The notes beneath the pieces were generated by a model. The model did not search any database and was not told the origin of the DNA. It saw only the letters and a list, made by a program, of their open reading frames with translations. Made by a program: the position numbers and the translations under genes. From Kiritimatiellia bacterium (lineage in GTDB: Bacteria; Verrucomicrobiota; Kiritimatiellia; RFP12; UBA1067), in NCBI GenBank assembly GCA_045535455.1, contig JAZSLQ010000253.1:906-64905 (forward strand): a DNA stretch of 64,000 nucleotides, given 5' to 3'. Of this stretch, positions 1,976 to 61,808 are shown piece by piece; position 1 is the first letter of the stretch, and each line of letters begins with the position of its first letter.

Positions 1976-4693
1976 ATGAACACGACAAAGAAAACGTCAA
2001 TATTGATGCTGGTCGCACTTGCGGCGTTTATTTCCTGCGCCGGGGCGATTCCGCTCCCTGAGCATCCGCGTCCCGACTGGGAGCGCGCCGAGTGGGTAAA
2101 CCTGAACGGCGAATGGGACTTCGCCTTCGAAGCGAAGGGCACGCCAGTCGACGCGCCGGCGCGTCCGGAGAAGTTCGACCAGAAGATCGTCGTTCCGTTC
2201 GGATGGGCCGCGCCGCTTTCGGGAGTGAAGGGCGAGGGGGACAGCGCGTGGTACAGGCGCGAGGTTGAGATTCCGGCGGACTGGAAGTCGCCGCGATTCT
2301 TCCTCGTTGTCGGCGCGTGCGACTGGCAGACCGACGTCTTCGTGAACGGGAAGTTCGTCGACAGGCATCAGGGCGGCTACGTTCCGTTCGAGGTAGAGCT
2401 CACCCCCTTCGCGAAGAAGGGCGGGAAGGCGACGGTCGAACTGCGCGTGTGGGACGCGCCTGCGCCCGTGGCCAACAAGGACTGGCGGCTTTACGGCAAG
2501 CAGGGCTACGGCAACGCGCGCGGCATCTGGCAGACGGTCTATCTCGAAGGACGCGGCGACAGCTATATCGAGTCCGTGCGCTTCGAGCCCTATTTCGCGA
2601 CGAGCCTCTGCGAAGACCACGTCCTTGTCAGCGTCACGCTGGGCGCGCCTGCGAAAGCGCCCCTCGATGTCACGATCGCCTTCAAACCGGAGGACGGCGG
2701 CGCGAAAGTCAGCGAGACTTTCGGAGTCGGGGAAATGGAGAGGGACATCAGCATACCAATAAAGGATGCGAAGGTCTGGGATCTCGACAATCCCTATCTC
2801 TACGAAGTGACGGTGAAGGCGGGCGACGACGAGGTGTCCACGTATTTCGGATTCCGCGAAATCGGCGTGGGGAAGAATCCGAACGGACACCCCTACGTGA
2901 CGCTGAACGGCAAGCCGGTCTATCTCCAGCTCACGCTCGACCAGAGCTACCACCCGGATGGATTCTACACCTTTCCGACGGACGAGTTCATGAAGAACGA
3001 GATACTTATTTCCAAGAAGCTCGGGCTGACCGGCAACCGCGTCCACATCAAGGCGGAGATTCCGCGCAAGCTGTACTGGGCCGACAAATTGGGGCTTCTC
3101 ATAATGGCCGACGTGCCGAACTGGTGGGGGCATGCAAGCGAGACTGCGTTCCGCGAGCATTGGGCGTGCTTCGAGGGAATGCTCAAGCGCGACTTCAACC
3201 ATCCGTCCGTCTTCGCGTGGGTGCTGTTCAACGAGACGTGGGGACTCTTCTCCGAGGGCCACGTCTACTCGGACGCAACGAAGCGCCGCGTGGCGGACGT
3301 GTGGCGCAGGGCGAAGGAGGCCGATTCGACGCGCATTATCGAGGACAATTCTCCGTGCAACAACGACCATGTCGTAACCGACATCAACACATGGCACTCC
3401 TATCTGCCGGGATGGAAGTGGGAGTCGAGGCTCGACGAATTCTGCTCGAAGACGTTTCCCGGCTCGAAGTGGAACTACAAGGGCGGTTTTGTTCAAAGGA
3501 CATTCGAGCCGATGATGAACTCCGAGTGCGGCAATGTCTGGGGTTACGATGGTTCGACGGGAGACTGCGATCTCACGTGGGACTACCACATGATGATCAA
3601 CGCTTTCCGCCGCCACATGAAATGCGCGGGATGGCTCTACACCGAGCACCACGACGTCATCAACGAATGGAACGGATACGTCCGCTTCGACCGCACCGAG
3701 AAGGAGTTCGGCATTGAGGAGCTCTTCCCCGGGATGACCTTCCGCGATTTCCACGCGGACGCATACATGCCGCTCGACAAGGAGCTCTGCCGCGAATTCA
3801 AGGCGGGCGACACATACGTCGTCCCTGTCGACATCTCGCTGACGACCGACCGCTATGCAGGGAAGAGGATTTCGGTTGGTTTTTCGGTCCGGTACATCAA
3901 CGGCGAGGGTGTGGCGCGCGACGGCCAGTGCGGCGGCATTCTGCCGAGTTCGTTTGTGGCGAAGGCGTGGCAGGAGGGGCATCTCGCGTTCCTTCCCGTG
4001 AAGCTCCCGGACTGCGACGCGTGCGGAACCGTGAACGTCACGCTCTATGCGGACGACGAGCCGATTGCGCGCAACTTCACGTGCTTCATCACGCGAAAGG
4101 CCGAGCCGAAGGAGGTGCGTCCGGTTAAGGCCGAGTGGTCGCTCGGTCGGTGGGATGTTCTCGGCGGCAAGAAGGACTGCGGCGCGGGCACGGGGTTCTT
4201 CGAGTACGAGTTCGACGCGCCGAAGGGCGAGTGCGTGTTCCGCGCCGAGGTCTCTTCCAAGCGTCTCAACGCGAAGGACTTCAAGAAGGACGCGTCCTCT
4301 GACACGGACATCGACTACATGCTCGGCGGACTCGCAGACCGCTCGCAGAACCCCAACAGCTATCCGCAGACGTCCGTCGCGCACAAGTATCCGGGCTCGG
4401 TCAAGGTGTACGCCAACGGCACGCTTGTCGCGACGGTCGAGCTTCCGGACGATCCCGCGGACCACCGCGGCATCCTGTCGTGGTTCTCGCAGGAACGCGC
4501 GAAGGACGGCAAGAACAGGCTCCACGAGGCGGGCAGCTACGGCTATCTCGTCGAGGCGAAGATACCGGCCGAAGTCGCCGCCGCGTCGAAGGACGGGAAG
4601 ATGACGATTCGGCTTGCGGCGGAGAAGACGGGGCTTGCCGTCTACGGCCCGCGCTTCGGCCGCATGCCGTTCGGTCCGCATCTCGCAGAGTAA
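1976..4693 (+). CDS. Glycoside hydrolase family 2 (beta-galactosidase/beta-glucuronidase-like), secreted
   Basis: 905 aa starting at MNTTKKTSILMLVALAAFISCAG (signal-like), 15 codons downstream of the track start. GH2-type sugar-binding region (WYRREVEIPADW..., VNGKFVDRHQGGYVPFEVELT) and catalytic-barrel pattern NHPSVFAWVLFNE. Confidence 0.85.
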   Translation: MNTTKKTSILMLVALAAFISCAGAIPLPEHPRPDWERAEWVNLNGEWDFAFEAKGTPVDAPARPEKFDQKIVVPFGWAAPLSGVKGEGDSAWYRREVEIPADWKSPRFFLVVGACDWQTDVFVNGKFVDRHQGGYVPFEVELTPFAKKGGKATVELRVWDAPAPVANKDWRLYGKQGYGNARGIWQTVYLEGRGDSYIESVRFEPYFATSLCEDHVLVSVTLGAPAKAPLDVTIAFKPEDGGAKVSETFGVGEMERDISIPIKDAKVWDLDNPYLYEVTVKAGDDEVSTYFGFREIGVGKNPNGHPYVTLNGKPVYLQLTLDQSYHPDGFYTFPTDEFMKNEILISKKLGLTGNRVHIKAEIPRKLYWADKLGLLIMADVPNWWGHASETAFREHWACFEGMLKRDFNHPSVFAWVLFNETWGLFSEGHVYSDATKRRVADVWRRAKEADSTRIIEDNSPCNNDHVVTDINTWHSYLPGWKWESRLDEFCSKTFPGSKWNYKGGFVQRTFEPMMNSECGNVWGYDGSTGDCDLTWDYHMMINAFRRHMKCAGWLYTEHHDVINEWNGYVRFDRTEKEFGIEELFPGMTFRDFHADAYMPLDKELCREFKAGDTYVVPVDISLTTDRYAGKRISVGFSVRYINGEGVARDGQCGGILPSSFVAKAWQEGHLAFLPVKLPDCDACGTVNVTLYADDEPIARNFTCFITRKAEPKEVRPVKAEWSLGRWDVLGGKKDCGAGTGFFEYEFDAPKGECVFRAEVSSKRLNAKDFKKDASSDTDIDYMLGGLADRSQNPNSYPQTSVAHKYPGSVKVYANGTLVATVELPDDPADHRGILSWFSQERAKDGKNRLHEAGSYGYLVEAKIPAEVAAASKDGKMTIRLAAEKTGLAVYGPRFGRMPFGPHLAE

Positions 4694-6068: not shown

Positions 6069-7238
6069 ATGACAAATAAATTCTTGGTTTTTGCATGTGT
6101 GGTTGCGGCGGCGATTGCGGGGAACTGCGCTACCGTCGTCGACGTTACCGGCATAGGTGCGCACGACAAGCAGTCCGTCTCGATCAGTGTAAGCGGCAGT
6201 GGCGCAGATGCGTATATGAAGACGCTTAAGCGCAACCTCGAGCTCACAGGTTGCTTCAAGGTCGAGAACGGCGGCGCGATCAAGGTGTCCGGCGCGATCG
6301 GCGGGACGATCGTCGCCTCCGGAGCCGGCAAGACGATCAGCGTGATGACCCCTGCGGGCGACGACAAGGCGATAAGGATGGCCGCGCGTCGCATGAGCGA
6401 CGATATCTGCGCGGCGATGTCCAAGGACGGGCAGAAGGGCTTCGCATGCGACCGCGTCGTGTTCGTGTCACGCAAGAGCCCGCAGTCTTCCGAACTTTGC
6501 ATGTGCTATCCCGACGGACAGGATGTCCGCCAGCTTACGAGCGACGGCAAGGTGGCGGTCGGTCCTCGCTGGAAAGACGCGAAGACAGTTTACTACATCG
6601 GCTACCTGAACGGCGGCCAGCAGATCTTCGAGCACAACGTCGAGACCGGGGAGCGCAAGCTTGCGTTCAACCTGAAGGGAATCTCGTCGCCCGCGGCGAT
6701 TTCGCCCGACGGCACCAAGGTAGCGATTGCGGCGTCCTTCCAGGGCAATCCAGAGCTCTACATCCTCTCGGGCGGGCGCTATACGCGTCTTACGAACACC
6801 AAGACCGCGAGCGAGGGCCAGCCGTCGTGGAGCCCCGACGGCACGAAGATAGCGTACGTCTCCGACGAAACACGCCATCCGCAGATCTACGTCGTCGACG
6901 TCGCGACGAAGGCGAGCCGCCGCCTCACGGCAAAGGGCTCGCAGAACGTCGACCCCGACTGGGGCGCCGACGGCCGCATCGCGTACATCACGAAGCGCGG
7001 CGGGCTCGCCCAGGTGGCCGTCATGGATCCAAAGGTCGGCGACTCCTCAGCGAAGCTCGTGACGTCGCCCGGCAGCTGGGAGCATCCCGTGTGGTCGCGC
7101 GACAGCCGCCACCTCGTCGCGGGGCGCGACAAGGCGCTTTTCGTCGTTGACTCAGTAGAGGCGGCGGAGGGCGGCGACGAACCGCGGCAGATGTTCCGCG
7201 CCGCCGGAAACTGGATCACTCCGACATGGATTAGGTAG
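6069..7238 (+). CDS. TolB-like periplasmic beta-propeller protein
   Basis: Signal-like N-terminus MTNKFLVFACVVAAAIAGNC. Repeated TolB/WD40-like blades: AISPDGTKVAIAAS, PSWSPDGTKIAYVSD, DPDWGADGRIAYIT, HPVWSRDSRHLV. Confidence 0.75.
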   Translation: MTNKFLVFACVVAAAIAGNCATVVDVTGIGAHDKQSVSISVSGSGADAYMKTLKRNLELTGCFKVENGGAIKVSGAIGGTIVASGAGKTISVMTPAGDDKAIRMAARRMSDDICAAMSKDGQKGFACDRVVFVSRKSPQSSELCMCYPDGQDVRQLTSDGKVAVGPRWKDAKTVYYIGYLNGGQQIFEHNVETGERKLAFNLKGISSPAAISPDGTKVAIAASFQGNPELYILSGGRYTRLTNTKTASEGQPSWSPDGTKIAYVSDETRHPQIYVVDVATKASRRLTAKGSQNVDPDWGADGRIAYITKRGGLAQVAVMDPKVGDSSAKLVTSPGSWEHPVWSRDSRHLVAGRDKALFVVDSVEAAEGGDEPRQMFRAAGNWITPTWIR

Positions 7239-11345: not shown

Positions 11346-11858
11346 ATGGACGTGCGTGGCTATTTCCGGCGACTCCGCGAGAAGATGATTCGCGATCCTC
11401 TTCCGCCGGAGGACATAGCCGCCGGATGGGCCCTTGGCGTTTTCGTCGGGTGCGCGATTCCGTTTGGGCTGCAGCTCATCATCTCGATTCCGCTTGCAAT
11501 GATGATGCGCGTCAGCAAAATTGGCGCGACGCTCGGCACCTTCGTCACCAACCCGGTCAGCATATTCTTCATCTATCCCGCGCAGACGTTCGTCGTGAAC
11601 AAGCTTCTGTTTGACGGCTCGCTTACGTATTCTCGGCTTGCGGAGACAGAGTGGACGTGGGCGGCAGTACGGCGGCTCGGCGCGGAGGCGATGGCGTCGT
11701 TCTTTCTCGGGGGCTTTCTCCTCGCGATAGTGATGACGCCGATAGCGTACTTCACGGTCAAGCGTCTTGTCGTTCGCGCCCGCGCGTTTCGCGCAAAACT
11801 TGCCGCACGCAGGGCGGAGAAAGCGGCTGCGGCTCCTTCGGGGGCTGTCGCGCAATGA
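11346..11858 (+). CDS. DUF2062-like membrane protein
   Basis: 170 aa with several TM segments. GWALGVFVGCAIPFGLQLIISIPLA pattern. Confidence 0.6.
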   Translation: MDVRGYFRRLREKMIRDPLPPEDIAAGWALGVFVGCAIPFGLQLIISIPLAMMMRVSKIGATLGTFVTNPVSIFFIYPAQTFVVNKLLFDGSLTYSRLAETEWTWAAVRRLGAEAMASFFLGGFLLAIVMTPIAYFTVKRLVVRARAFRAKLAARRAEKAAAAPSGAVAQ

Positions 11859-12259
11859 TTTCCCCCGAGACGATAGAGCGCATCAAGGCGCTGATGGAAG
11901 AGGCGTCTGTCTTTGATGAAGACCTTGAGGAGAGCTTCATCCTCGGCGGCGGCCCGGGCGGGCAGAAGACGAACAAGACTTCGAACGTAGTGCGGCTTTC
12001 GCACGAGCCGAGCGGCCTCATGGTGCGTTGCGGCGAGACGAGGAGCCGCGAGACCAACCGCTGGCTTGCGCGGCGCATGCTCGCCGAGCTTATCCTCGAG
12101 CGGGAGAGAGGTCGCAAGTCAGCCGCGCGTCAGGCCGCCGAGAAGATTCGCCGCCAGAAGCGCCGCCGCAGTCGCCGCCAGAAGCAGAAGATGCTCGACG
12201 ACAAGCACGCGCACTCCGAAGTCAAGCGACTTCGCAGGACAATCCCGAGCGACGACTGA
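11855..12259 (+). CDS. ArfB-like GGQ-domain peptidyl-tRNA hydrolase (ribosome rescue factor type)
   Basis: Start moved to MISPETIERI (ATG 11855, ATGA overlap with the upstream stop). GGQ motif in GGPGGQKTNKTSN. Long basic C-terminal tail KIRRQKRRRSRRQKQK. Confidence 0.75.
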   Translation: MISPETIERIKALMEEASVFDEDLEESFILGGGPGGQKTNKTSNVVRLSHEPSGLMVRCGETRSRETNRWLARRMLAELILERERGRKSAARQAAEKIRRQKRRRSRRQKQKMLDDKHAHSEVKRLRRTIPSDD

Positions 12260-12264
12260 ATTTA

Positions 12265-12273
12265 TGGTATAAT
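12265..12273 (+). promoter_or_regulatory. Extended -10 TGGTATAAT upstream of tRNA-Pro
   Basis: TTATGGTATAAT at 12262-12273. The tRNA 5' end is 20 nt downstream. Confidence 0.5.
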
Positions 12274-12292
12274 ATAGCCCGTCTTCCCTACA

Positions 12293-12369
<77 letters not shown>

Positions 12370-12421
12370 TTCCCGTAGCAATATTAGGTTTTTCGTTTGC
12401 TACCATCGGAAACTATATATA

Positions 12422-12430
12422 TGGTATAAT
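12422..12430 (+). promoter_or_regulatory. Extended -10 TGGTATAAT at the start of the accessory region
   Basis: ATATGGTATAAT at 12419-12430, about 85 nt upstream of SD GGGAGAGG and ATG 12517. Confidence 0.4.
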
Positions 12431-12516
12431 GTCACCACATTGGCATTATGAATCTTTTTGCCCAGCTACTTGGAAACGGAAAGAATTACTTTGAATGAAG
12501 ACGGATAAGGGAGAGG

Positions 12517-13374
12517 ATGATGCGCAAGAAACTCAAGTTGCTCATGTTTTTCTTAGCCGGGTTTGCCGTTAGCGCCGGCGTGACATTTGTTACTCGGCCC
12601 GAGGCGATTGTCTCCCGTTGTCCGGAATGGGCCTTACCTTACATCAACCCCGTAAATTGGTCAATCCGGCATTTTGTTAAGGCGTTGGTGGCGGGGGATG
12701 CCGCGGCGCTGGCTGAGCATGTGATACTGCCGTTCGAGCGCCAATATCCCATTCCGAAGATTAATACAATGGATGAGTTCGTGGCGGCGATACCGTCGCT
12801 TTTGGGCAAAGATGCCGTGAAGCGACTCTCCGACTCAAGCGCATTTCGCGATTGGAGCCAGATTGGGGCAGGTTACGGGCACGATTCTGTTGGGATCTGG
12901 GTGACTGACGATATGCCAGTGCAATTAGAGGCCATAACCGAACTGACGCCGGCGGAAGCAGCACTTTGGGAAGAGTGTGCCAAGCGCGAAGTCGCCTCGT
13001 TGCATTCTTCGCTTCGGGACGGTGTGGCGCGTCCGATCCTGAGTTTCGTGACGGAAGACACGGCCTTTCGCGGGAGAATCGACTTGCTTGGCGAGAAGCT
13101 GGATGTCCGAGCAAGCGAGGCAGGGTTCAAATATCGTCTGGCCATATACAAGGCAGGGAATGCCATAACGAACGCCCCAGACAAGATTGTGATGTGCAAA
13201 TACGGGCATGACGGTTCTCCCGGCTATGACAGCTACACTAGCGAAGACGAGCAGTATCAAGTGACCGTGAACTATTGCGGACCTCTTGATTTCGCCGAGA
13301 TGGATTTCTACCGCCCTGGCATCGCCGAAGACGATGACAAGGCCCATCGCGCAAAATCCTGCGAATGGAAATAG
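12517..13374 (+). CDS. Hypothetical membrane-anchored/secreted protein
   Basis: 285-aa ORF with N-terminal hydrophobic helix LKLLMFFLAGFAVSAGVTFV and an SD upstream. No recognisable domain. Confidence 0.6.
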   Translation: MMRKKLKLLMFFLAGFAVSAGVTFVTRPEAIVSRCPEWALPYINPVNWSIRHFVKALVAGDAAALAEHVILPFERQYPIPKINTMDEFVAAIPSLLGKDAVKRLSDSSAFRDWSQIGAGYGHDSVGIWVTDDMPVQLEAITELTPAEAALWEECAKREVASLHSSLRDGVARPILSFVTEDTAFRGRIDLLGEKLDVRASEAGFKYRLAIYKAGNAITNAPDKIVMCKYGHDGSPGYDSYTSEDEQYQVTVNYCGPLDFAEMDFYRPGIAEDDDKAHRAKSCEWK

Positions 13375-53987: not shown

Positions 53988-56204
53988 ATGAAACAGATAT
54001 TGCAATCATTCAAGACAGGTGAAATGTGGCTCGCTGAAGTGCCGGCGCCGCTTTGCAAGGGCAAAGGGGCGGTGGTGCAGACAGCCGCAAGCTTCGTGAG
54101 CGCGGGGACGGAGCGTATGCTCGCCGAGTTCGCCAAGAAGGGACTCGTCGGCAAGGCGCTGCAAATGCCAGACCAAGTGAAAAAGGTCATCCGCAAGATG
54201 AAGACGGAGGGCGTCTTCGCCACTCTTGAGAAAGTGCAGGCGAAACTCGATCAGCCGATTCCGCTTGGCTACTCATCGGCGGGTGTTGTCGTTGAGGCGG
54301 GACGAGATTCGGGCTTCAATGTTTGCGACCGTGTTGCCTGTGGTGGCGCGGGATTCGCAAATCACGCGGAGTTCAACTATGTGCCGCGCAACTTGATGGT
54401 TAAGATTCCGGATGGCGTGAGCTTCGAGGACGCGAGCTGCGCGACGGTCGGATCGATCGCGCTGCAGGGCGTTAGGCAGTGCGAGGTGAATCTCGGAGAG
54501 ACGGTCGCGGTGATCGGACTGGGGCTTATGGGCATTCTTGCCGTCCAGATGCTGAAGGCGAGCGGATGTCGAGTAATCGGGTTCGATCCGAATTCAGGGC
54601 GTTGCAAGCTCGCGGAGGAGATGGGCTGCGATAGGGCGGTCAGCGACAATTTTGCCGCGGAGTGTATGGCGTTCTCGGGTGGCTTCGGCGTCGATGCGGT
54701 GCTTATTACTGCGGCGACGCATTCTGACGAGCCGGTGACAGTCGCGGCGGAGATCAGCCGCAAGAAGGGCAAGGTCGTTGCGACGGGGCTTGTGGGGATG
54801 AATTTGCCTCGCGACCAATACTACAAGAAAGAAGTTGATTTCCGGCTTAGCTGCTCCTACGGCCCTGGACGCTATGACCCTGTGTATGAGGAGCAGGGTA
54901 TTGATTATCCGTTTGGCTATGTTCGTTGGACGGAGCAGCGAAACATGGCGGCATTTTTGCAGCTTGTCGCGGAAGGGAAGGTTACACCGTCGAAGCTTGT
55001 GACGCATAGATTCAAGTTTGATGACGCGCTTGATGCCTACCAGGTGCTGCTGGGAATCAAGAAGGAGCCGTATCTTGGTATCGTCTTGGAGTATGGAGAT
55101 GTTTTAACGCAGAGGCGCGAAGGCGCAGAGGACGCAGAGATTTGCAGGAGGGTAGATTTTGGTCGCCCCTCTGCACTAAAAACAGAAAATGTAGGCGTGT
55201 CGTTTATAGGGTGCGGGAATTTTGCGAAGGCGGTGCTGCTTCCGACGCTAAAGAAAACGAAGGGAGTAGCCTTCCGCGGCGTTTCCACCGCGACAGGAAT
55301 GAGCGCCACAGACACCGCAAAGAAGTACGGCTTTGCATTCGCCGCAACGGATCAGGCCGAGGTGCTGAAGGATGCGGAAACGAACCTCGTTATGGTGACA
55401 ACACGCCATGATATGCATGCCACACAGATCAAGGCGGCGCTTGATGCCGGGAAGTACGTATTCTCCGAAAAGCCACTTTGTATCAATGAGGAACAGTTAG
55501 AGAAACTTTTAGCCACAAAGGACACAGAGATCACAAAAGAGTCCTCTGCAACTCTGCGACTCTGCGACTCTGCGTTAAAAAATCGCGTTATGATCGGCTT
55601 CAATCGCCGCTTCTCGCCTCATGCCAAGTTGCTGAAGGAGTATTTCTCGAAGCGGACGCTGCCGCTTGTGATGCACTATCGCGTCAACGCGGGGTCGATT
55701 CCGAAGGACATCTGGCTTCAGGACCCGGAAGTTGGCGGCGGACGTATGGTTGGCGAAGGATGTCACTTCATTGACTTCATGAGCTATGTCTGCGGTGCGC
55801 CGGTTGAGAAGGTTCAGGCGATGTGCATCAAGACGGCAAATGGGGCCGAGACGCCGGAGGACTCGATTAGCGTCAATCTCCAGTTTGCGGACGGCAGCGT
55901 GGGAACGCTTGAGTATGTCGCTCTCGGCGACACGACGCTGCCGAAGGAGTTCTGCGAAATACACGGCGAGGGCTCGACGGCGACGATGGACAACTTCTGC
56001 AAGACCGTCTGCTCCGGCAAGCTTGGAAAGCGCAAGCTGAAAGGCAAGCAGCAGAAGGGGTTCAGGGAGGAGTTGGAGGCGACGATTGAGGCGGTGAAGA
56101 ATGGGAAAGCGATGCCGATTCCGTTTGACCAGATTCTCAATGTCACGAAAACAACTTTTGCTGTACTCAAGGCCGTCAAGTCTGGGCAGAGCGAAGAAGT
56201 CTAA
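53988..56204 (+). CDS. Bi-domain oxidoreductase: MDR/alcohol-dehydrogenase-like N-domain + Gfo/Idh/MocA C-domain
   Basis: 738 aa. The N-terminal half has an MDR pattern (GYSSAGVV..., VAVIGLGLMGILAVQ). The C-terminal half has VSFIGCGNFA Rossmann and GFNRRF motifs. Carries two heptad-array repeats in linker regions. Confidence 0.8.
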   Translation: MKQILQSFKTGEMWLAEVPAPLCKGKGAVVQTAASFVSAGTERMLAEFAKKGLVGKALQMPDQVKKVIRKMKTEGVFATLEKVQAKLDQPIPLGYSSAGVVVEAGRDSGFNVCDRVACGGAGFANHAEFNYVPRNLMVKIPDGVSFEDASCATVGSIALQGVRQCEVNLGETVAVIGLGLMGILAVQMLKASGCRVIGFDPNSGRCKLAEEMGCDRAVSDNFAAECMAFSGGFGVDAVLITAATHSDEPVTVAAEISRKKGKVVATGLVGMNLPRDQYYKKEVDFRLSCSYGPGRYDPVYEEQGIDYPFGYVRWTEQRNMAAFLQLVAEGKVTPSKLVTHRFKFDDALDAYQVLLGIKKEPYLGIVLEYGDVLTQRREGAEDAEICRRVDFGRPSALKTENVGVSFIGCGNFAKAVLLPTLKKTKGVAFRGVSTATGMSATDTAKKYGFAFAATDQAEVLKDAETNLVMVTTRHDMHATQIKAALDAGKYVFSEKPLCINEEQLEKLLATKDTEITKESSATLRLCDSALKNRVMIGFNRRFSPHAKLLKEYFSKRTLPLVMHYRVNAGSIPKDIWLQDPEVGGGRMVGEGCHFIDFMSYVCGAPVEKVQAMCIKTANGAETPEDSISVNLQFADGSVGTLEYVALGDTTLPKEFCEIHGEGSTATMDNFCKTVCSGKLGKRKLKGKQQKGFREELEATIEAVKNGKAMPIPFDQILNVTKTTFAVLKAVKSGQSEEV
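55104..55148 (+). repeat. Heptad-array repeat, type A (CGCAGAG orientation)
   Basis: TTAACGCAGAGgcgcgaagGCGCAGAGgaCGCAGAGatttgcagg, translated in frame as LTQRREGAEDAEICR. Confidence 0.85.
55543..55578 (-). repeat. Heptad-array repeat, type A (CTCTGCG orientation), convergent partner of 55104-55148
   Basis: cctctgcaaCTCTGCGaCTCTGCGaCTCTGCGTTAA, translated as SSATLRLCDSALK. Its reverse complement shares TTAACGCAGAG plus further heptads with 55104-55148. Confidence 0.85.
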
Positions 56205-57688
56205 TGGCGATCGGTAGATTAGTTAGAACGTTGCAATATCTGAAGCTCCGTCAGATCTGGTATCAGGTTTGGCGTAGGATTCAGAAGGGGCTTGAAGCAC
56301 ATCCGAAGTGTGGAGGCGAAGAGCTGCCGGAGTTTACATTTCTCAATCTGACGGCGAAGCCGAAGGGATGGAATGACGAGTCACTGGATATGCTGTGGAG
56401 GTATAACCTGCATTACTTCGATTGGGTTTTAACGCAGAGGCGCAGAGACGCGGAGTACGCAGAGAATCTACTGGAGAGGTGGATAAAAGATAATCCTAAA
56501 GGTTGCGTCCCTGGTTGGGATCCATACCCCACGAGCCTTCGTATTGTCAATTGGGTTAAATATCTACAAACCCGCTCTGCGCACTCAGCGTCTCTGCGCC
56601 TCTGCGTTGAAAACTCCTTGCGCGCTCAGCTCGATTACCTCGCTAAGCACATAGAATGGCACATCCTTGCGAATCACCTCCTCGCCAACCTCAAGGCACT
56701 TGTAATCGGGAACAGGTTTCTTGGACGTGATTGTGATAAATGGATGCGGCTCTACGAGAAACAGATTGGTGAGCAGGTGTTGCCAGATGGTGGACACTAC
56801 GAGCGTAGCGTCATGTACCATGCAATCATCCTGGAGGATGTGTTGGATGTAATCAAGTTCTGCGGCGAAGATGCCGCTTGGCTAAGGCCGGTTGCGGCGA
56901 AGATGCTGCGCTATCTAGTCAACATGACCGGTCCGGACGGAAAGATTGCCATGTTCAACGATGCTGCCGATGCTATTGCCAAGCCTACAGATTGGATTGT
57001 CAGTTACGCAAATAAACTTGGCTTTGAAGCACCGATTGCAGAGCCGTTTGTCGATTTTCCTGATACGGGCTACACGCGAATGACTGTGGGAGATTTCGTT
57101 TTATTTGTAGATACTGCTCCGATAGGTCCCGACTACCAGCCGGGGCATGCGCATGCCGATACGCTCACCTACGAGTTGTATTACAAGGGGCGGAAGGTTG
57201 TGACAGATTCCGGTACTAGCGAATATCGCGGCAAAAGACGTGCATTCGAACGTTCGACCGCCGCCCACAATGTCGTGGAGGTCGGCGGACGCAATTCAAG
57301 CGAGGTTTGGAGTTCGCACCGTGTCGGGGCGAGAGCGAGAATTGTGAAGCGCGGGGTCGAACAGGGACGAATTTTCGCCGCGCACGATGGATACGGGTTT
57401 GAGGTCGGAAGGGAATGGCGACTCACGAATGAAGGACTTTCTGTAACGGAGCGGGTAAAGAGCTCGGGCAATTGTGTCACGAGGGTCCACATGAGTTTAG
57501 CCGCAAAGGACGCAAAGTTAGCAAAGGAAGAAATTTGTTTTGAGACTACTGGGATTAATGTCAAAGGGCTTGTTGATTTTAAAGAGTATGAATATGCTGT
57601 TGAGTTTGGCAAGTCGGAAAAAGGTGTGTGTATGTCTAGTGCTTTCAATGGAGGAGAGTTCTCGTATTCAATAATCCCTACGGTTTAG
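56204..57688 (+). CDS. Heparinase II/III-like family protein (polysaccharide-locus type)
   Basis: 494 aa. LWRYNLHYFDW, GWDPYPTSLRIVNWVKY and WHILANHLLANLKAL match my recollection of this family. TAATG overlap with the upstream gene. Confidence 0.75.
   Translation: MAIGRLVRTLQYLKLRQIWYQVWRRIQKGLEAHPKCGGEELPEFTFLNLTAKPKGWNDESLDMLWRYNLHYFDWVLTQRRRDAEYAENLLERWIKDNPKGCVPGWDPYPTSLRIVNWVKYLQTRSAHSASLRLCVENSLRAQLDYLAKHIEWHILANHLLANLKALVIGNRFLGRDCDKWMRLYEKQIGEQVLPDGGHYERSVMYHAIILEDVLDVIKFCGEDAAWLRPVAAKMLRYLVNMTGPDGKIAMFNDAADAIAKPTDWIVSYANKLGFEAPIAEPFVDFPDTGYTRMTVGDFVLFVDTAPIGPDYQPGHAHADTLTYELYYKGRKVVTDSGTSEYRGKRRAFERSTAAHNVVEVGGRNSSEVWSSHRVGARARIVKRGVEQGRIFAAHDGYGFEVGREWRLTNEGLSVTERVKSSGNCVTRVHMSLAAKDAKLAKEEICFETTGINVKGLVDFKEYEYAVEFGKSEKGVCMSSAFNGGEFSYSIIPTV
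56429..56464 (+). repeat. Heptad-array repeat, type A (CGCAGAG orientation), left arm of a 36-bp inverted repeat
   Basis: TTAACGCAGAGGCGCAGAGACGCGGAGTACGCAGAG, translated as LTQRRRDAEYAE. Confidence 0.9.
56575..56610 (-). repeat. Heptad-array repeat, type A, right arm (33/36 reverse-complement match to 56429-56464)
   Basis: CTCTGCGCACTCAGCGTCTCTGCGCCTCTGCGTTGA. Its reverse complement TCAACGCAGAGGCGCAGAGACGCTGAGTGCGCAGAG differs from the left arm at 3 positions. Translated as SAHSASLRLCVE. Confidence 0.9.
57500..57527 (+). repeat. Heptad-array repeat, type B (CGCAAAG orientation)
   Basis: GCCGCAAAGgaCGCAAAGttaGCAAAGG in the 3' part of the heparinase-like gene (LAAKDAKLAKE). Confidence 0.8.
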
Positions 57689-57698
57689 GAAACCGTAG
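57678..57698 (+). other. Perfect 9-bp hairpin overlapping the heparinase-like gene stop codon
   Basis: CTACGGTTT agg AAACCGTAG. The stop TAG is at 57686-57688. There is no U tract, so it is not a canonical intrinsic terminator. Confidence 0.4.
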
Positions 57699-57725
57699 GT
57701 CGTGTGTGTCGCATATTGTAAAATT

Positions 57726-57752
57726 CTTTGCGACCTTTGCGTTCTTTACGGC
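57726..57752 (-). repeat. Heptad-array repeat, type B (CTTTGCG orientation) in the 5' UTR of the GT4 gene
   Basis: CTTTGCGACCTTTGCGTTCTTTACGGC. Its reverse complement GCCGTAAAGAACGCAAAGGTCGCAAAG matches 58981-59007 at 25/27 positions. Confidence 0.9.
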
Positions 57753-57765
57753 TAAAACCAAAACA

Positions 57766-59016
57766 ATGAAAATCCTATTTTTTTCTCATTACTATACTCC
57801 TGAGGGCAATGCCCCGGCAACGCGAGTGAGCGCATTGTGTGAGCGCTGGGTAAAGGCCGGGCACGATGTCACGGTCGTGACATGTCCGCCGAATGTTCCG
57901 AATGGAATCGTCTATGACGGCTACGCCAACAGGCGTACTAGCGAAGTCATCAACGGCGTCAAGGTCGAGCGCGTGAAGCTCTACATCGCCGCCAACAAGG
58001 GTGCGGTCAAGCGCATGTTCAACTTCGTCAGCTACTTTCTGAAGGCGCTCTTAGCAGCGTTGCGGTTGCCGAAGCCGGATGTCGTCGTTGCGACGAGTCC
58101 GCAGATATTCTGTGGCTATGCTGGAGTATGGTACAAGCGATTGAGGCATGTACCGTTGGTGATTGAGATACGTGATATCTGGCCTGAGTCGATGGGCGCG
58201 GTTGGCGCGAACATCCCGAAGATCGCCTACTGGAATCTCGAGCGAATAGAGAAGGCGATGTACAAGAAATGCGACCGGCTCGTTACGCTTGGACAAGGAT
58301 ACTATGACCGCCTTGCCGAAAAGGGTGTGCCGAAGGAGAAGATGTCCATTGTCATGAACGGCACCGACCTCGCGGTATATTCGCCGCGAGAGAAGAATGC
58401 AGAGCTGCTGAAGAAGTTTGGCCTAGAGGATAAGTTTGTTGTGAGCTACATCGGGACTGTTGGCATGGCCTGCGGACTGGAGGTTGTATTGGATGCGGCG
58501 GAAATTATTAGCCGCAAAGATCGCAAAGAGGTAGTGTTTGTGGTTGTGGGAGACGGTGCACACAGGGAGCGATTGGAGTCGGAGGCGAAAAAGCGTGGAC
58601 TGGCAAATGTAGTATTCACGGGACGACAGCCGAAAAGTTCGATGCCGGATTGGGTGAGTTCGAGCGATGCAAGCCTCGTTCATTTGAAGAAGACCGAGCT
58701 GTTTACGACGGTGATGCCGAGCAAGATATTCGAATCAGCAGGGTGCAAGCGACCGATCATAATGGGCGTGGACGGTTTTGCGAAGAAGCTTGTGATGGAT
58801 GCGAATGCTGGACTCGACATGACACCCGAAAACGCCGATTCGCTTGTTGAGTGCGTTGAGAAGTTGGTCGGAGACCCTGAGCTTTGTAAGCAGCTGGGTG
58901 AAAACGCCTACAACAACATCGCCAAAGTCCATAACCGCGACAAGCAGGCAGAAGATTATCTGAAGACTCTTGAGATGTTAGCCGCAGAGAACGCAAAGGT
59001 CGCAAAGCCTTTGTGA
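57766..59016 (+). CDS. Glycosyltransferase family 4 (WbuB-like)
   Basis: Start moved to MKILFFSHYYTPEGNAPATRV (ATG 57766), the typical WbuB-type N-terminus. C-terminal GT-B motif region. Confidence 0.85.
   Translation: MKILFFSHYYTPEGNAPATRVSALCERWVKAGHDVTVVTCPPNVPNGIVYDGYANRRTSEVINGVKVERVKLYIAANKGAVKRMFNFVSYFLKALLAALRLPKPDVVVATSPQIFCGYAGVWYKRLRHVPLVIEIRDIWPESMGAVGANIPKIAYWNLERIEKAMYKKCDRLVTLGQGYYDRLAEKGVPKEKMSIVMNGTDLAVYSPREKNAELLKKFGLEDKFVVSYIGTVGMACGLEVVLDAAEIISRKDRKEVVFVVVGDGAHRERLESEAKKRGLANVVFTGRQPKSSMPDWVSSSDASLVHLKKTELFTTVMPSKIFESAGCKRPIIMGVDGFAKKLVMDANAGLDMTPENADSLVECVEKLVGDPELCKQLGENAYNNIAKVHNRDKQAEDYLKTLEMLAAENAKVAKPL
58511..58530 (+). repeat. Heptad-array repeat, type B (short copy) inside the GT4 gene
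   Basis: GCCGCAAAGatCGCAAAGAG, translated as SRKDRKE. Confidence 0.55.
58981..59007 (+). repeat. Heptad-array repeat, type B, at the 3' end of the GT4 gene
   Basis: GCCGCAGAGAACGCAAAGGTCGCAAAG, translated as AAENAKVAK. Inverted partner of 57726-57752 and of 59022-59035. Confidence 0.9.
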
Positions 59017-59021
59017 TCTGT

Positions 59022-59035
59022 GCGTTCTTTGCGGC
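59022..59035 (-). repeat. Half-copy of the type B repeat forming a 14-bp stem with 58981-58994 across the GT4 stop codon
   Basis: GCGTTCTTTGCGGC is the reverse complement of GCCGCAAAGAACGC, with one G-U position against 58981-58994. The loop is 27 nt and contains the stop at 59014-59016. Confidence 0.8.
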
Positions 59036-59048
59036 AAAAGGAATATTT

Positions 59049-60203
59049 ATGAAAATAGTATCAGTAGTAGGGGCGCGGCCGAACTTCATGAAGGTTGCGC
59101 CGTTCTGTCGTGCGCTTAAGGCATATCCTGACGTAAAGCACGTACTGGTCCATACGGGGCAGCACTATGACGTCAGGATGAGCGAGCAGTTCTTCAAGGA
59201 GCTGGACATCCCCAATCCCGACATCAATCTCGAGATTGGTTCTGGGTCTCATGCCGAGCAGGTCGGGCGCACGATGATTGCGTTCGAGAAGGTGCTACGC
59301 GAGGGGAAGCCCGATTGGGTTGTGGTGCTGGGCGATGTCAATGCGACGTGCGCGTGTTCCATTACGGCGAAGAAGGAGCATATCAAATGTGCTCATATTG
59401 AGGCGGGTTTGCGAAGCCGCGACATGGACATGCCTGAGGAGATAAATCGACTCGTGACAGACCGACTCAGCGACCTTCTGTTGACGCCCGATCGGCTGAG
59501 CAATGCAAATCTCAAGGCAGAGGGTGTGCCAGATGAGAAGGTCAAGTTTGTCGGCAACATCATGATCGACACTCTTGAACGCGAGCGTGAGAAGGCGGCG
59601 GCGCTTGATCTGTCCAAGATTGTAGCAGACAATCTTATAGATGAATATCCAACCTCCGCCTCTCTGCGCCTCTGCGCCTCTGCGTTAAAAGATAGAAAAT
59701 ATGTTGCAATGACGATGCATCGTCCGAGCAATGTGGATCAACGCGAGACACTGGAGCCGGCAATGAGGTTCTTTCTCGACGAGATTACGAAGGAATATCC
59801 GATTGTCTGGGCGATACACCCGCGCGCGCAGAAGATGCTGAAGGAGTTTGGGCTCTGGGACGAGGTTGTGGCTAATGAGAATATGATCCTTGTCAAGCCG
59901 CTTGGCTATCATGCGATGCTGCGGCTCAACATGGGTGCGCGGCTCTTCATGACCGACTCCGGTGGCCTTCAGGAGGAATGTTGCGTACTTGGGACGCCAT
60001 GTCTCACGATGCGGTGGAACACCGAGCGTCCGATCACGCTGATGGAAAATGGCGGCGCATCCATCCTCGTCGGCAATGCGGTCGGGAAGATGCGCGATGC
60101 CTATCGGTCGCAGATTGATGCGCCACGTCATGCGATGCGCCCCGAACTTTGGGACGGACATACGGCGGAAAGAATCGCGGAATGCATTGTAAAAGGAATG
60201 TAA
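59049..60203 (+). CDS. UDP-N-acetylglucosamine 2-epimerase (non-hydrolysing), second paralog
   Basis: Start moved to MKIVSVVGARPNFMKVAP (ATG 59049). CAHIEAGLRSRD and TDSGGLQEECCVLGTPCLTMRWNTERP. Carries a type A repeat in the interdomain linker. Confidence 0.88.
   Translation: MKIVSVVGARPNFMKVAPFCRALKAYPDVKHVLVHTGQHYDVRMSEQFFKELDIPNPDINLEIGSGSHAEQVGRTMIAFEKVLREGKPDWVVVLGDVNATCACSITAKKEHIKCAHIEAGLRSRDMDMPEEINRLVTDRLSDLLLTPDRLSNANLKAEGVPDEKVKFVGNIMIDTLEREREKAAALDLSKIVADNLIDEYPTSASLRLCASALKDRKYVAMTMHRPSNVDQRETLEPAMRFFLDEITKEYPIVWAIHPRAQKMLKEFGLWDEVVANENMILVKPLGYHAMLRLNMGARLFMTDSGGLQEECCVLGTPCLTMRWNTERPITLMENGGASILVGNAVGKMRDAYRSQIDAPRHAMRPELWDGHTAERIAECIVKGM
59653..59688 (-). repeat. Heptad-array repeat, type A (CTCTGCG orientation), solo copy
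   Basis: cctccgcCTCTCTGCGcCTCTGCGcCTCTGCGTTAA, translated as TSASLRLCASALK. I saw no convergent partner within the gene. Confidence 0.85.
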
Positions 60204-60216
60204 AGGAGAAACAACA

Positions 60217-60972
60217 ATGGTAAAAGTAGGAATAGTTGGCTGTGGTTTTGTGGGCGGAGCCCTAAAGGCATGGCTTGAAGAGAACAACAAGGACGCCCAA
60301 ATCTTTGTGAGTGATCCGCCAAAGGGATATAATGACGACCTTTCGCAGATCGACATCGCGTTTCTGCAGATACATGTCCCTACCGAGGATGACGGAACAC
60401 AGGATCTGACTCTGATGAAGCAGCTCATCAAAGGGCTGCCGAATGTCCCAGTGTTCGTCAGAACGACGATTCTCCCAGGAACGAGCGATATGCTTTCGAA
60501 GGAGACTGGACATCAAGTCTGCTATATGCCGGAGTTCTTAACGGAGAGGACGCATATCGAGGACTTCAAGAAGCAGACGATGGTGTTCACCGGAGCGGTA
60601 GACCTGCTGGTGAAAGTTTTCCCAGGCAAGAAATTCACCGTGATGAGTCCGTTGGAGGCAGAACTTACGAAGTACATCCACAATGTCTTCGGGGCGTACA
60701 AGGTCACCTACTTCAACGCGGCGAAGGAGTATGTCGAGAAGATGGGTGGCGATTGGGCGAAGGTCCACACAGGTGTTCTCCTCTCTGGCTACATCAACGA
60801 CACGCATACATATGTTCCTGGCCCAGATGGAAAGTGCGGATATGGCGGCAAGTGCTTCCCTAAGGACGTCAATGCGTTTGCGAAGATGACGAAGGGTACG
60901 TCGATGGGAACGCTACTGGCTCCGCTCCACGAGTTGAACGTCCACTTCCGAGGCTTTGAAGAGCACATCTAA
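60217..60972 (+). CDS. Short UDP-glucose/GDP-mannose-dehydrogenase-family-like NAD-binding protein
   Basis: 251 aa. Rossmann motif VGIVGCGFVGGAL and catalytic-Cys context GYGGKCFPKD. Appears to lack the C-terminal UDP-binding domain of full-length enzymes. Confidence 0.6.
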   Translation: MVKVGIVGCGFVGGALKAWLEENNKDAQIFVSDPPKGYNDDLSQIDIAFLQIHVPTEDDGTQDLTLMKQLIKGLPNVPVFVRTTILPGTSDMLSKETGHQVCYMPEFLTERTHIEDFKKQTMVFTGAVDLLVKVFPGKKFTVMSPLEAELTKYIHNVFGAYKVTYFNAAKEYVEKMGGDWAKVHTGVLLSGYINDTHTYVPGPDGKCGYGGKCFPKDVNAFAKMTKGTSMGTLLAPLHELNVHFRGFEEHI

Positions 60973-60974
60973 AG

Positions 60975-61808
60975 ATGTACTATCTCAACAAGATAATCGG
61001 TTTTCTTGTAAGTCCAATTGGGGGTGCGATTGCAGGAGGCATTGCCGCGGTTGTCTGTGCGCGGCTGGGGCGTAAGCGTCTCGCCAAATGGCTCGGTGGG
61101 CTTACGGTCGCATGGTTGTGGCTCTGGATGACGCCGATCATGACATGGGTTGTCGGCGTGCCGCTTGAGCGCGAATTTCTTGTCGACGGAAGGGTGCCGG
61201 CGGTTGAGACATTTTCGGAGACTGACGCTATCGTGCTTCTTGGCGGAAGCATGGGAGTCGAGACGAATCTAAGCCAGTATGCCGAGATGTGGACAAGCGC
61301 GGATCGTGTATGGCAGGCGGCGCGGCTCTACAAGGCAGGGAAGTCGAGTAAGATTATCGCGACTGGAGACTATGCGAAGGATACGACGCTGCCGCTGCTG
61401 AAGGAGTTTGGAGTGGGGGAAGAGACGGTGTCGTTTCTCGATGCGAGGACTACGGAGGAAGAGGCGAAGGGGATTAGGGAATTATTTAGCCGTGTAGAAC
61501 ATGTAGATCGTGTAGATGGGGGGATTGGCAGCCGCAAAGAACGCAAAGATGATAGTCGTGTAGAAGGGGGAGAGGTGAAGGTATTTTTGGTGACGAGTGC
61601 GTGGCACATGAAGCGAGCGAGGTTGATGTTCAATAAGTATGCGCCAGAGATTGAGGTTGTCTGTGCGCCAGCGGACTTCGAGAATACTTTTATGGCATGT
61701 CAGACGCCTTTCTTTAAGGTTGTCCTACCTGACTCAACAATATTTTACTTGAACTCCGTTGCTTTTCACGAGTGGGTAGGTATTGTTGGGTATTCGATTT
61801 TCAGATAA
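60975..61808 (+). CDS. DUF218 (YdcF/ElyC-like) protein with an in-frame repeat insertion
   Basis: 277 aa with N-terminal TM helices and the DUF218 motif FLVTSAWHMKRA. A 9-bp-periodic repeat block sits just upstream of this motif. Confidence 0.75.
   Translation: MYYLNKIIGFLVSPIGGAIAGGIAAVVCARLGRKRLAKWLGGLTVAWLWLWMTPIMTWVVGVPLEREFLVDGRVPAVETFSETDAIVLLGGSMGVETNLSQYAEMWTSADRVWQAARLYKAGKSSKIIATGDYAKDTTLPLLKEFGVGEETVSFLDARTTEEEAKGIRELFSRVEHVDRVDGGIGSRKERKDDSRVEGGEVKVFLVTSAWHMKRARLMFNKYAPEIEVVCAPADFENTFMACQTPFFKVVLPDSTIFYLNSVAFHEWVGIVGYSIFR
61488..61575 (+). repeat. Composite 9-bp-periodic repeat block (CGTGTAGA units plus a type B CGCAAAG array) inside the DUF218 gene
   Basis: CGTGTAGAaCATGTAGAtCGTGTAGAtgg (61491-61519), GCCGCAAAGAACGCAAAG (61531-61548), CGTGTAGAagg (61557-61567). 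Translated as SRVEHVDRVDGGIGSRKERKDDSRVEGG. Confidence 0.8.

Follow-up and report, generated by a model that had tools for sequence, protein, structure and literature searches.

Periodic heptad arrays in a Kiritimatiellia polysaccharide locus, read as probable relics of a selfish, intervening-sequence-like element

A stretch of 64,000 nt from a Kiritimatiellia bacterium (contig JAZSLQ010000253.1, positions 906 to 64,905 of the forward strand, assembly GCA_045535455.1), hereafter called the window, carries in and between the genes of a polysaccharide locus a set of short periodic arrays built on the heptad CGCARAG. Comparison with orthologous operons shows these arrays to be insertions, and very probably they are the relics of insertions by a heptad-array family found in many bacterial phyla. 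Taken as a whole, the reading preferred here, to which we give a probability of about 0.7, is that the arrays are decaying relics, devoid of open reading frames (ORFs), of a selfish element that resembles the intervening sequences (IVSs) of 23S rRNA or the miniature transposable elements with inverted repeats known as MITEs, and that would serve no function for the genes in which it lies.

The window contains 48 copies of CGCARAG, 28 of which fall between 55108 and 61548. The expectation from 100 dinucleotide-preserving shuffles is 26.0 +/- 4.9, and no shuffle attained the observed number. Arrays of at least two CGCARAG units at 8-9-nt spacing are restricted to 55.1-61.6 kb. A detector blind to the motif, which retains any 7-mer present in at least three copies with a period of 8 or 9, returned 11 arrays per 64 kb, nine of them at 55.5-61.5 kb, versus 0-3 in triplet-shuffled windows. 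An earlier reading made from the letters alone (the sequence-only reading) had noticed no copies in the other 55 kb and had left it to statistics whether the arrays exceed composition-matched expectation; the multi-unit 8-9-nt arrays are indeed confined to this block, and the excess is real. The locus comprises a bi-domain ADH/GFO oxidoreductase gene followed by genes for a heparinase II/III-like protein, a GT4 glycosyltransferase, a UDP-GlcNAc 2-epimerase (wecB), a short UDP-glucose-dehydrogenase-like protein and a DUF218 protein, all of which carry arrays except the short dehydrogenase-like gene.

We call an arm one terminal box together with the heptad units that follow it. Twelve arms, plus CGTGTAGA arrays, were found at 55.1-61.6 kb, and zero in the remaining 55 kb. 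Each opens with a box, which reads TTTTAAC or TTTAGC, and continues with 2-4 heptads (CGCARAG, CACARAG or CGTGTAGA) spaced 8-9 nt apart, two arms having only two units, that is, fewer than three. A-type arms combine the TTTTAAC box with CGCAGAG units at a period of mostly 8 nt, B-type arms the TTTAGC box with CGCAAAG units at a 9-nt period, and the C-type (CGTGTAGA) array of the DUF218 gene is built alike, with TTTAGC and then three 9-nt units. The sequence-only reading had recognised 11 of the copies and the two flavours, although the split is not clean (a CGCAGAG unit sits at 58983 within a 'B' arm), and had overlooked the CACARAG copy at 55507-55540; its description of the arm was incomplete in that the terminal box was missing. 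Nine arms are translated in frame, as it had stated, and the predicted peptides include LTQRRRDAEYAENLLER, SAHSASLR and VEHVDR. As to the two copies that it had placed between genes, the arm at 57721-57757 does lie upstream of the GT4 ATG at 57766, whereas the arm at 59009-59039 overlaps the last two GT4 codons and the stop. The peptides that it had quoted are present in ORF translations, but FFATFAFFTAK belongs to a GTG-started upstream extension, the true GT4 start being ATG 57766 because orthologues start MKILFF. Finally, convergent pairing, described there as usual, holds for four neighbouring pairs (spacers of 0, 1, 110 and 194 nt; complementarity of 81-92% where computed), the other arms being solo or on the same strand. 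A convergent pair is either the two arms of one hairpin element or two independent copies of one master, and not a special paired unit.

Insertion is the reading to which the comparison with five orthologous operons (L204, L205/L206, L207, L208 and L209) leads. Their proteins are 71-95% identical to those of the window, all length differences occur at array sites, and these are the only hypervariable indel sites of the otherwise conserved proteins. The same site can be empty, hold a solo arm, hold a full two-arm hairpin, or hold another repeat flavour, depending on the operon considered. For example, when 34 homologues of the heparinase-like protein are aligned, insertions and deletions concentrate at three hot spots, which match the positions of the three arms and contain either no insertion or differing repeat peptides (LTQRRRDAEYAE, LAAKNAEDAK, HKEHKDHKEH, NRVEHVERVE, PQIGTNRHKSEDGVCEDKCGFVV), and in L208 genes overlap where the window has array-filled spacers. 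In L207 the codons at which the window has solo arms hold full hairpins, so that the solo arms are most readily understood as halves that survived decay. Some homologues have a different hairpin family at the same two heparinase-like hot spots, ACCACAAATC x3 ... GGATTTGTG, which encodes PQIGTNRHKSEDGVCEDKCGFVV in frame (L207 6205-6285, proteins P0040 and P0046).

Tandem 8-nt units in polysaccharide genes also bring contingency repeats to mind, in which slipped-strand gain or loss of units would switch surface-polysaccharide genes through the frame shift that a change in unit number causes. This explanation is rejected, and we consider it extremely improbable: each array has only 2-4 imperfect units, the 9-nt period of B and C arrays makes a frame shift impossible, the 34 aligned homologues and the five orthologous operons are all in frame and differ by a whole arm rather than by unit number, and the same arms are found outside genes and in many phyla.

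The last of these points comes from a search of species-representative genomes (596 Gb) with the exact A-type pattern TTAACGCAGAG-N1-2-CGCAGAG-N1-2-CGCAGAG, which has 25 specified bases. It matched more than 117 genome stretches, where fewer than 0.01 would be expected by chance according to our own arithmetic. Among the hosts are rumen-derived Victivallales and Kiritimatiellia, Acidobacteriota, Verrucomicrobiota, Planctomycetota, Chloroflexota (one of them a Herpetosiphon isolate), Desulfobacterota, Nitrospinia, Gemmatimonadota, Spirochaetota, Armatimonadota and Proteobacteria, and several matches lie on contigs of 0.4-4.8 Mb. At these loci, 28% of 186 arrays are in long open frames versus 75% of random positions, part of the 28% being upstream read-through; neighbouring arrays are convergent in 41 cases, divergent in 9 and direct in 5, with spacers of 13-476 nt that are not conserved; and the prefix TTTAA precedes 112 of the 186 arrays, the search pattern itself having begun with TTAAC. 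The exact A-type arm is also found in six viral or proviral contigs (L001-L006, IMG/VR). All-against-all clustering of the ORFs neighbouring 117 array loci yielded generic families only, with no recurrent transposase or recombinase among them, no search aimed at recombinase genes having been made. The heptad-array family, as judged from these matches, is thus shown to be cross-phylum rather than local.

What do complete copies look like? In L012 (Kiritimatiellia) and L016 (Chloracidobacterium), convergent pairs bracket within a few bases a gene of the GxxExxY family (PF13366/TIGR04256; matches to TIGR04256 at E = 1e-39 and 1e-43, respectively). The association was examined in 80 independent GxxExxY loci from Joint Genome Institute (JGI) metagenomes, with displaced intervals as controls and an inverted-repeat score of at least 30 as threshold. 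An inverted repeat from upstream to downstream of the gene reaches that score in 53 of 75 loci versus 0 of 96 displaced controls, and at least three units of period 8/9 lie upstream in 44 of 77 loci versus 4 of 114 controls. The flanking units include CGCAGAG, CACAGAG, CGCCGAG, CACGAAG, CGCAAAG and CACCAAG, and the boxes in front of them read TTAAC, TTCAC, TGAAC or TTTAC. The oxidoreductase/heparinase junction is another example: in the window, L208 and L209 the two genes share 1-4 nt, while in L207 a PDDEXK_3/GxxExxY gene lies between CACAAAG arms at this place and in L205/L206 a 23S_rRNA_IVP gene (PF05635) lies between inverted GATTGTTTGATT arrays of the GATTGTTT flavour. Arrays of this GATTGTTT(GATT) flavour, whose period is 7-8 nt, enclose 23S_rRNA_IVP genes situated between operon genes in L205 (9445-10010), L210, L212, L213 and L218, and the flavour also occurs inside the oxidoreductase gene of L205 (8771-8837), in frame as NQTIKQSNNQTI. 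Inverted short-period arrays flank the IVP genes, again within operons, in six of seven independent loci. Besides L205/L206, five further loci have an IVP ORF enclosed in this way. GxxExxY and IVP genes are thus shown, at the level of sequence, to be tightly bracketed by such arms, and they are the only genes found between arms. L207 has, between the heparinase and GT4 genes (11591-12831), a nucleotidyltransferase gene of the Polbeta type, with CGTGTAGA and CGCAGA arms on its upstream side alone; a partner ORF that runs into the GT4 start probably follows it.

The GxxExxY family is large (at least 7979 proteins at E <= 1e-10 among the best 8000 candidates), and the function of PF13366 is listed as 'Unknown' (PMC3424549). 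A structure model (predicted local distance difference test, pLDDT, 91.7) has as its best match in the PDB the Cas4 protein SSO0001 (TM score 0.54, probability 1.0), followed by lambda exonuclease, RecE and the AddAB nuclease domain. Cas4 and lambda exonuclease were reached by fold comparison only, a search of the PDB by sequence having given no match for GxxExxY. With D73, E83 and K85 (D...E-x-K) invariant, the protein looks like a minimal DNA-end nuclease of the Cas4/RecB-type PD-(D/E)XK class, as predicted from the model.

Small genes flanked by short repeats raise the further idea of an integron, with the arms as attC-like recombination sites and the small genes, including that for the nucleotidyltransferase, as gene cassettes. 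The consensus of the attC R''/R' boxes resembles the arm termini, which read YYYAAC...GTTRRR. Beyond these termini nothing is shared: attC sites, which have intI nearby, are self-folding, with R''/L''-L'/R' boxes, an unpaired spacer and extrahelical bases, whereas the arms are long and near-perfect, have no unpaired spacer, and complement each other across a gene instead of folding on themselves after each cassette. Moreover, no unidirectional cassette array was seen, no neighbour family recurred in the ORF clustering, and copies lie inside conserved genes. We therefore give this explanation hardly any weight.

Within the window, the arms occupy places where conserved enzymes tolerate change. 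F1 (55102-55139, + strand) is an A-type arm made of TTTTAAC and four units (CGCAGAGG CGCGAAGG CGCAGAGGA CGCAGAG), reads LTQRREGAEDAE, and lies in the linker between the ADH_zinc_N and GFO_IDH_MocA domains of the oxidoreductase gene (53988-56204); this linker is the sole hypervariable stretch of a protein 85-90% identical among the five orthologues, in which other flavours occupy it. F2, between the N- and C-terminal GFO domains, is a compound degenerate hairpin in frame. Its first arm (55507-55540, +; TTTTAGC-CACAAAGGA-CACAGAGAT-CACAAAA) is directly abutted by an A-type arm on the other strand (55541-55584, -) that ends with CTCTGCGTTAAAA; together they fold weakly (z = -1.2). The length of the F2 site is 36 nt in L204, 51 in L208, 57 in L209, 90 in the window, 105 in L205 (GATTGTTT flavour) and 195 in L207, where a full A hairpin is present.

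Three arms lie in the heparinase-like gene (56204-57688). H1 (56427-56464, +; A-type, TTTTAAC and four units) reads LTQRRRDAEYAE directly after the invariant NLHYFD motif; the site measures 51 nt with A(+) in the window, 39 nt with B(+) in each of L204, L205 and L209, 69 nt with CACAAAG(+) in L207, and 27 nt, empty, in L208. H2 (56575-56612, -; A-type) reads SAHSASLRLCVEN; it is separated by 110 nt of conserved coding sequence from H1, to which it is complementary at 92% (fold z = -9.7). It is common to the window and L207, decayed in L209, absent from L208, and replaced in L204 and L205 by a (+) CACAAAG/CGCAAAG arm. H3 (57496-57526, +; B-type, TTTAGC followed by CGCAAAGGA CGCAAAGTT AGCAAAG) reads LAAKDAKLAK some 60 codons from the end of the gene, and L204 and L209 share it, while L205 and L208 lack it. 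At a distance of 194 nt H3 is complemented (z = -5.7) by the intergenic B-type arm at 57721-57757 (-), located 9 nt 5' of the GT4 start, which is likewise present in L204 and L209 and absent in L205 (a 37-nt spacer) and L208 (overlapping genes). The heparinase-like genes are mosaic. The last ~60 codons and both flanking B arms go together in the window, L204 and L209, and are jointly replaced by a divergent tail without arms in L205, P0003 and P0010; H2 groups the window with L207 and L209, yet the gene overall is nearest to that of L204. Recombination breakpoints in this gene may coincide with arms. The stop codon of the heparinase-like gene is covered by a perfect 10-bp hairpin (ccctacggtt-tag-gaaaccgtagg, 57677-57700), which is also conserved in L204 and L209 and bears no relation to the heptad arms.

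Further downstream, G1 (58508-58529, +) is a short B-type arm with TTAGC and two units, which reads ISRKDRKE in the GT4 gene (57766-59016); L204 and L208 have 18 nt without an arm at this site, L205 and L209 an arm of three units, and L207 a full hairpin of 114 nt. At the GT4/wecB junction, a B-type (+) arm covering the last GT4 codons (58978-59007, LAAENAKVAKPL) and a B-type (-) arm (59009-59039) that extends over the stop form a full hairpin at 58978-59039 (-40.9 kcal/mol, z = -7.95), with the wecB ATG (59049) 10 nt downstream. L204, L205 and L209 share this hairpin, albeit with mismatches that are not compensated, and L208, where the genes overlap, lacks it. W1 (59653-59693, -) is a solo A-type arm reading TSASLRLCASALK between the two Rossmann halves of the epimerase gene (59049-60203), and it falls at gaps in the alignment with the solved epimerase structure 4NEQ; L204 and L208 are empty at this site (51 nt), L205 and L209 carry a B(+) arm, and L207 a 108-nt full hairpin. 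The comparison with orthologous genes lacking the arrays, proposed in the sequence-only reading, thus gave empty sites at H1, G1 and W1. In the DUF218 gene (60975-61808), D1 (61485-61565, +) consists of three same-strand arms read in frame as SRVEHVDRVDGGIGSRKERKDDSRVE: a C-type arm at 61485-61517 (TTTAGC with CGTGTAGAA CATGTAGAT CGTGTAGAT), a B-type arm at 61528-61550 (GCAGC with CGCAAAGAA CGCAAAGAT) and one further CGTGTAGAA unit at 61557-61565. It represents a 28-residue insertion relative to the L204/L209 DUF218 homologues, which are 38% identical.

Arms probably survive in genes because they are located in loops, linkers and gene ends, and their persistence in coding sequence can be ascribed to their composition. 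Arm orientations A(+), A(-), B(+), B(-) and C(-) are free of stop codons in two of the three frames, C(+) leaving a single open frame, which is the one read in the DUF218 gene, so that in most orientations a copy can be translated; only copies of a length divisible by three would then survive selection.

Could the arms instead work as stems in the mRNA, either as RNase III processing sites or insulators at gene junctions, or by gating translation of the next gene? The predicted folds are strong for the GT4/wecB hairpin, for H1/H2 and for H3/57721, in two cases the stem spans a stop codon and ends 9-10 nt short of the following start codon, and IVS stems of the same anatomy are cut by RNase III (PMC4990558). 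When followed across orthologues, however, the GT4/wecB and H3/57721 stems display 0 compensatory changes, with 4 breaks in 24 pairs and 5 in 29, respectively; selection on RNA pairing was rejected for this want of covariation. Several arms are solo, and a single arm is not self-complementary (59640-59700, around W1, folds no better than shuffles, z = -0.9). The L208 operon has overlapping genes, with neither intergenic arms nor hairpins, the order of arms in L207 (see below) would require crossing pairs, and ribosomes would open stems in translated regions. A function as mRNA stems is thus unlikely, if less so than the other alternatives considered here. An Rfam scan of 54.5-62.5 kb at E <= 1 returned nothing but two sub-threshold chance matches, and no rRNA match.

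Nor do the convergent arms behave as the inverted repeats of invertons, that is, of intragenic segments flipped by a recombinase. It is true that inverted repeats of 30-38 nt flank 110-420 nt within genes, and that reverse-complementing 56427-56612 keeps the 494-codon frame open. That open frame is probably due to chance, the segment being 62 codons long, and invariant motifs would go: inversion between H1 and H2 would destroy the invariant WDPYP...NW core. Inversion between F1 and F2 creates a stop codon, the 34 aligned homologues include no inverted allele, many arms are solo, and the same arms bracket whole genes elsewhere. Invertons are accordingly rejected, and the chance that they explain the arrays seems to us close to nil. 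An H1/H2 pair evolving in concert was rejected as well, their common 8-8-9 spacing being the master pattern of the family, since it recurs at L205 16889 and in L007. The 92% complementarity of H1 and H2 is explained by their being two opposite-orientation copies of one master.

This spacing is shared by the A arms of the window, and in L205 and L209 one unit order, CGCAAAG-AA-CGCAGAG-RR-CGCAAAG, is repeated at F1, H1 and F2; both features imply that copies derive from masters within a genome, or have been homogenised. L207 is array-rich throughout, with about two arrays per kb, and contains three compound elements (2690-2965, 4300-4635 and 6120-6640), in which (+) arms of several flavours (CGCAGAG, CGTGTAGA, CACAAAG) come first, then a conserved core (~115 nt) that contains two small hairpins, and finally (-) arms. 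The (+) arms come in the order A, C, B' and the (-) arms in the order A, B', C, the same order and unmirrored, so that like-with-like pairing would give crossing helices. Such an order fits oriented, putatively protein-binding DNA sites better than one nested hairpin.

Why, then, are the arrays of the window confined to five genes? Outside the conserved block, arrays are absent from the window, L204, L208 and L209, and L205 has two just downstream. In the window, L204, L205, L208 and L209 the block has a GC content of 0.53-0.56 versus 0.46-0.50 in the flanks. Confinement is probably due to the block being conserved, richer in GC than its surroundings, and shared with array-rich relatives. In the simplest reading, the block circulates among these bacteria, including array-rich lineages, and the copies in the window are inherited relics with some later replacement. 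The sequence-only reading had named simple inheritance of locally confined arrays as the case that would speak against a selfish element; this holds in part, for the block-inherited copies, but the array family occurs in many phyla, and inheritance of the block explains where the arrays lie and not what they are. The GC content of the window as a whole is mosaic (0.61-0.64 at 1-12 kb, 0.42-0.49 at 34-52 kb, 0.50-0.56 at 54-64 kb), and the polysaccharide locus looks put together from pieces of different origin.

The proposed element would be composed of two inward-pointing inverted arms around a variable core, each arm having a terminal box TT(A/T/C)A(A/G)C and 3-4 heptads C-R-C-N-R-A-G or CGTGTAGA with 8-9-nt spacing. 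In complete versions, the core would hold a small gene, usually GxxExxY, genes for the 23S_rRNA_IVP four-helix bundle being placed in analogous arrays of another flavour. Versions without an ORF would have landed at permissive places of the operon (an inter-domain linker, loops, gene 3' ends, intergenic spacers), where the copies would later decay or be replaced, hairpins without an ORF and solo arms being deletion products of the element. The nuclease-like fold of GxxExxY and its invariant D...E-x-K suggest how it might spread: the associated nuclease, acting in trans, would drive a kind of homing, by repair of double-strand breaks or by gene conversion between arms, and not DDE transposition. 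This part of the proposal is tentative, and on its own we would put it at somewhat less than even odds.

Several observations weigh against the reading of the arrays as relics of a selfish element. Movement is deduced from presence and absence among orthologues at 71-95% protein identity, no mobility event having been seen, and the comparison of orthologues yielded neither a target-site duplication nor a clean empty/filled boundary, as the flanks have diverged. The operon recombines (its alleles are mosaic), and some of the apparent turnover may be allele shuffling. The unmirrored arm order of L207 is not what a simple nested-hairpin element predicts. The 64-kb window contains no GxxExxY gene (by tblastn) and no IVP gene, so that the mobilising enzyme would have to act in trans or have acted in the past. 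Arms also precede other cargo, namely the nucleotidyltransferase gene of L207, and GxxExxY may consequently be a passenger and not the driver. Heptad flavour and GxxExxY sequence are correlated (59.9% versus 57.1% identity, significant but small), but weakly, and the correlation is confounded by host relatedness.

Among known systems, the IVSs of 23S rRNA offer the closest anatomy, together with the REPINs discussed below. Like the arms described here, IVSs have complementary termini that form a stem of ~28-40 bp with a loop that is empty or contains one small ORF, are inserted in a functional gene without killing it, have spread sporadically across lineages, and exist with and without an ORF. 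Those of Coxiella and Leptospira carry an S23p/23S_rRNA_IVP ORF (PMC4990558), and a PF05635 gene of the same anatomy is present in the L205/L206 operon. IVSs, however, sit in helix 25 or 45 of the 23S rRNA and are cut out by RNase III, whereas the arms all lie in or between protein-coding genes and are translated, which argues against removal from the transcript. The arms are made of periodic units of 7-9 nt, which may further set them apart from classical IVS stems.

That selfish palindromic elements colonise coding sequence, as the sequence-only reading had suggested by analogy with Rickettsia palindromic elements (RPEs), finds support in the polymorphism of presence, absence and type among orthologues, in the scatter across phyla and in the bracketed small genes. 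The likeness extends to selfish repeats in frame in genes, known from RPEs (PMC10969869), which are likewise palindromes found between genes and in frame in unrelated genes, at structurally tolerant places; the anatomy, as said, is closer to IVSs or REPINs. RPEs measure ~100-150 bp, encode a conserved peptide, are limited to Rickettsia, and have no known associated gene and no heptad periodicity. The arms, in contrast, are 25-40 nt long in full elements of 60-200 nt, come in several flavours and frames and in many phyla, and in their full form bracket GxxExxY or IVP genes.

Repetitive extragenic palindromic (REP) sequences, their hairpin-forming doublets (REPINs) and the associated RAYT transposases (PMC3116915, PMC3733652) are similar in their short inverted doublets with a variable spacer, their genome-specific flavours, their mostly extragenic location, and a small nuclease-type gene that is itself flanked by the repeats. 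Unlike the arms, a REP is a palindrome with a GTAG or CGTC tag (A and B arms lack GTAG, and the C flavour has GTAG inside its unit) and a RAYT is a Y1 HUH transposase, whereas the protein flanked here has a predicted PD-(D/E)XK fold; copies here are also found inside genes. No recurrent mobile-element gene emerged from the ORF clustering of the 117 array loci, in which no hidden Markov model search aimed at RAYTs was made. MITEs such as Correia, ERIC and Nezha share the terminal inverted repeats around a non-coding core, as in the ~115-nt core conserved among the L207 copies, and some also have in-frame intragenic copies. No target-site duplication could be defined between empty and filled sites, the flanks having diverged. 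In contrast to MITEs, the neighbours of the 117 loci include no parent insertion sequence or DDE transposase, and it is the arms that are conserved, even across phyla, whereas the core differs from one genome to another.

A full-text literature search for the array strings retrieved no paper, and none of the papers naming GxxExxY, PF13366, TIGR04256 or PF05635 deals with flanking periodic repeats, so that the heptad-array element is apparently undescribed so far. More speculatively, and less probably than the nuclease-driven spread itself, the arrays could act as recognition modules for a class of mobile elements, so far unrecognised and present across phyla, that carry minimal Cas4/RecB-like GxxExxY nucleases or IVS four-helix-bundle proteins. 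The large swarms of GxxExxY paralogues, rRNA IVSs and in-frame insertions would then be three faces of one element that spreads by nuclease-triggered break repair or gene conversion, and that, if this is true, remodels proteins and operons through the translatable arms it leaves behind. The bracketing of GxxExxY genes, together with arms lacking an ORF across phyla, gives this protein family a testable role in mobile DNA, and the anatomy ties its genes to the unexplained intervening sequences of 23S rRNA. The arrays also account for odd charged or Cys/Leu-rich peptides (TQRRRGAE, SASLRLC, AAKNAKDAK, RVEHVERV) in proteins from metagenome-assembled genomes, and for spurious N-terminal extensions in their annotation. 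In the organisms concerned, selfish DNA would repeatedly rewrite the same loops and linkers of conserved enzymes.

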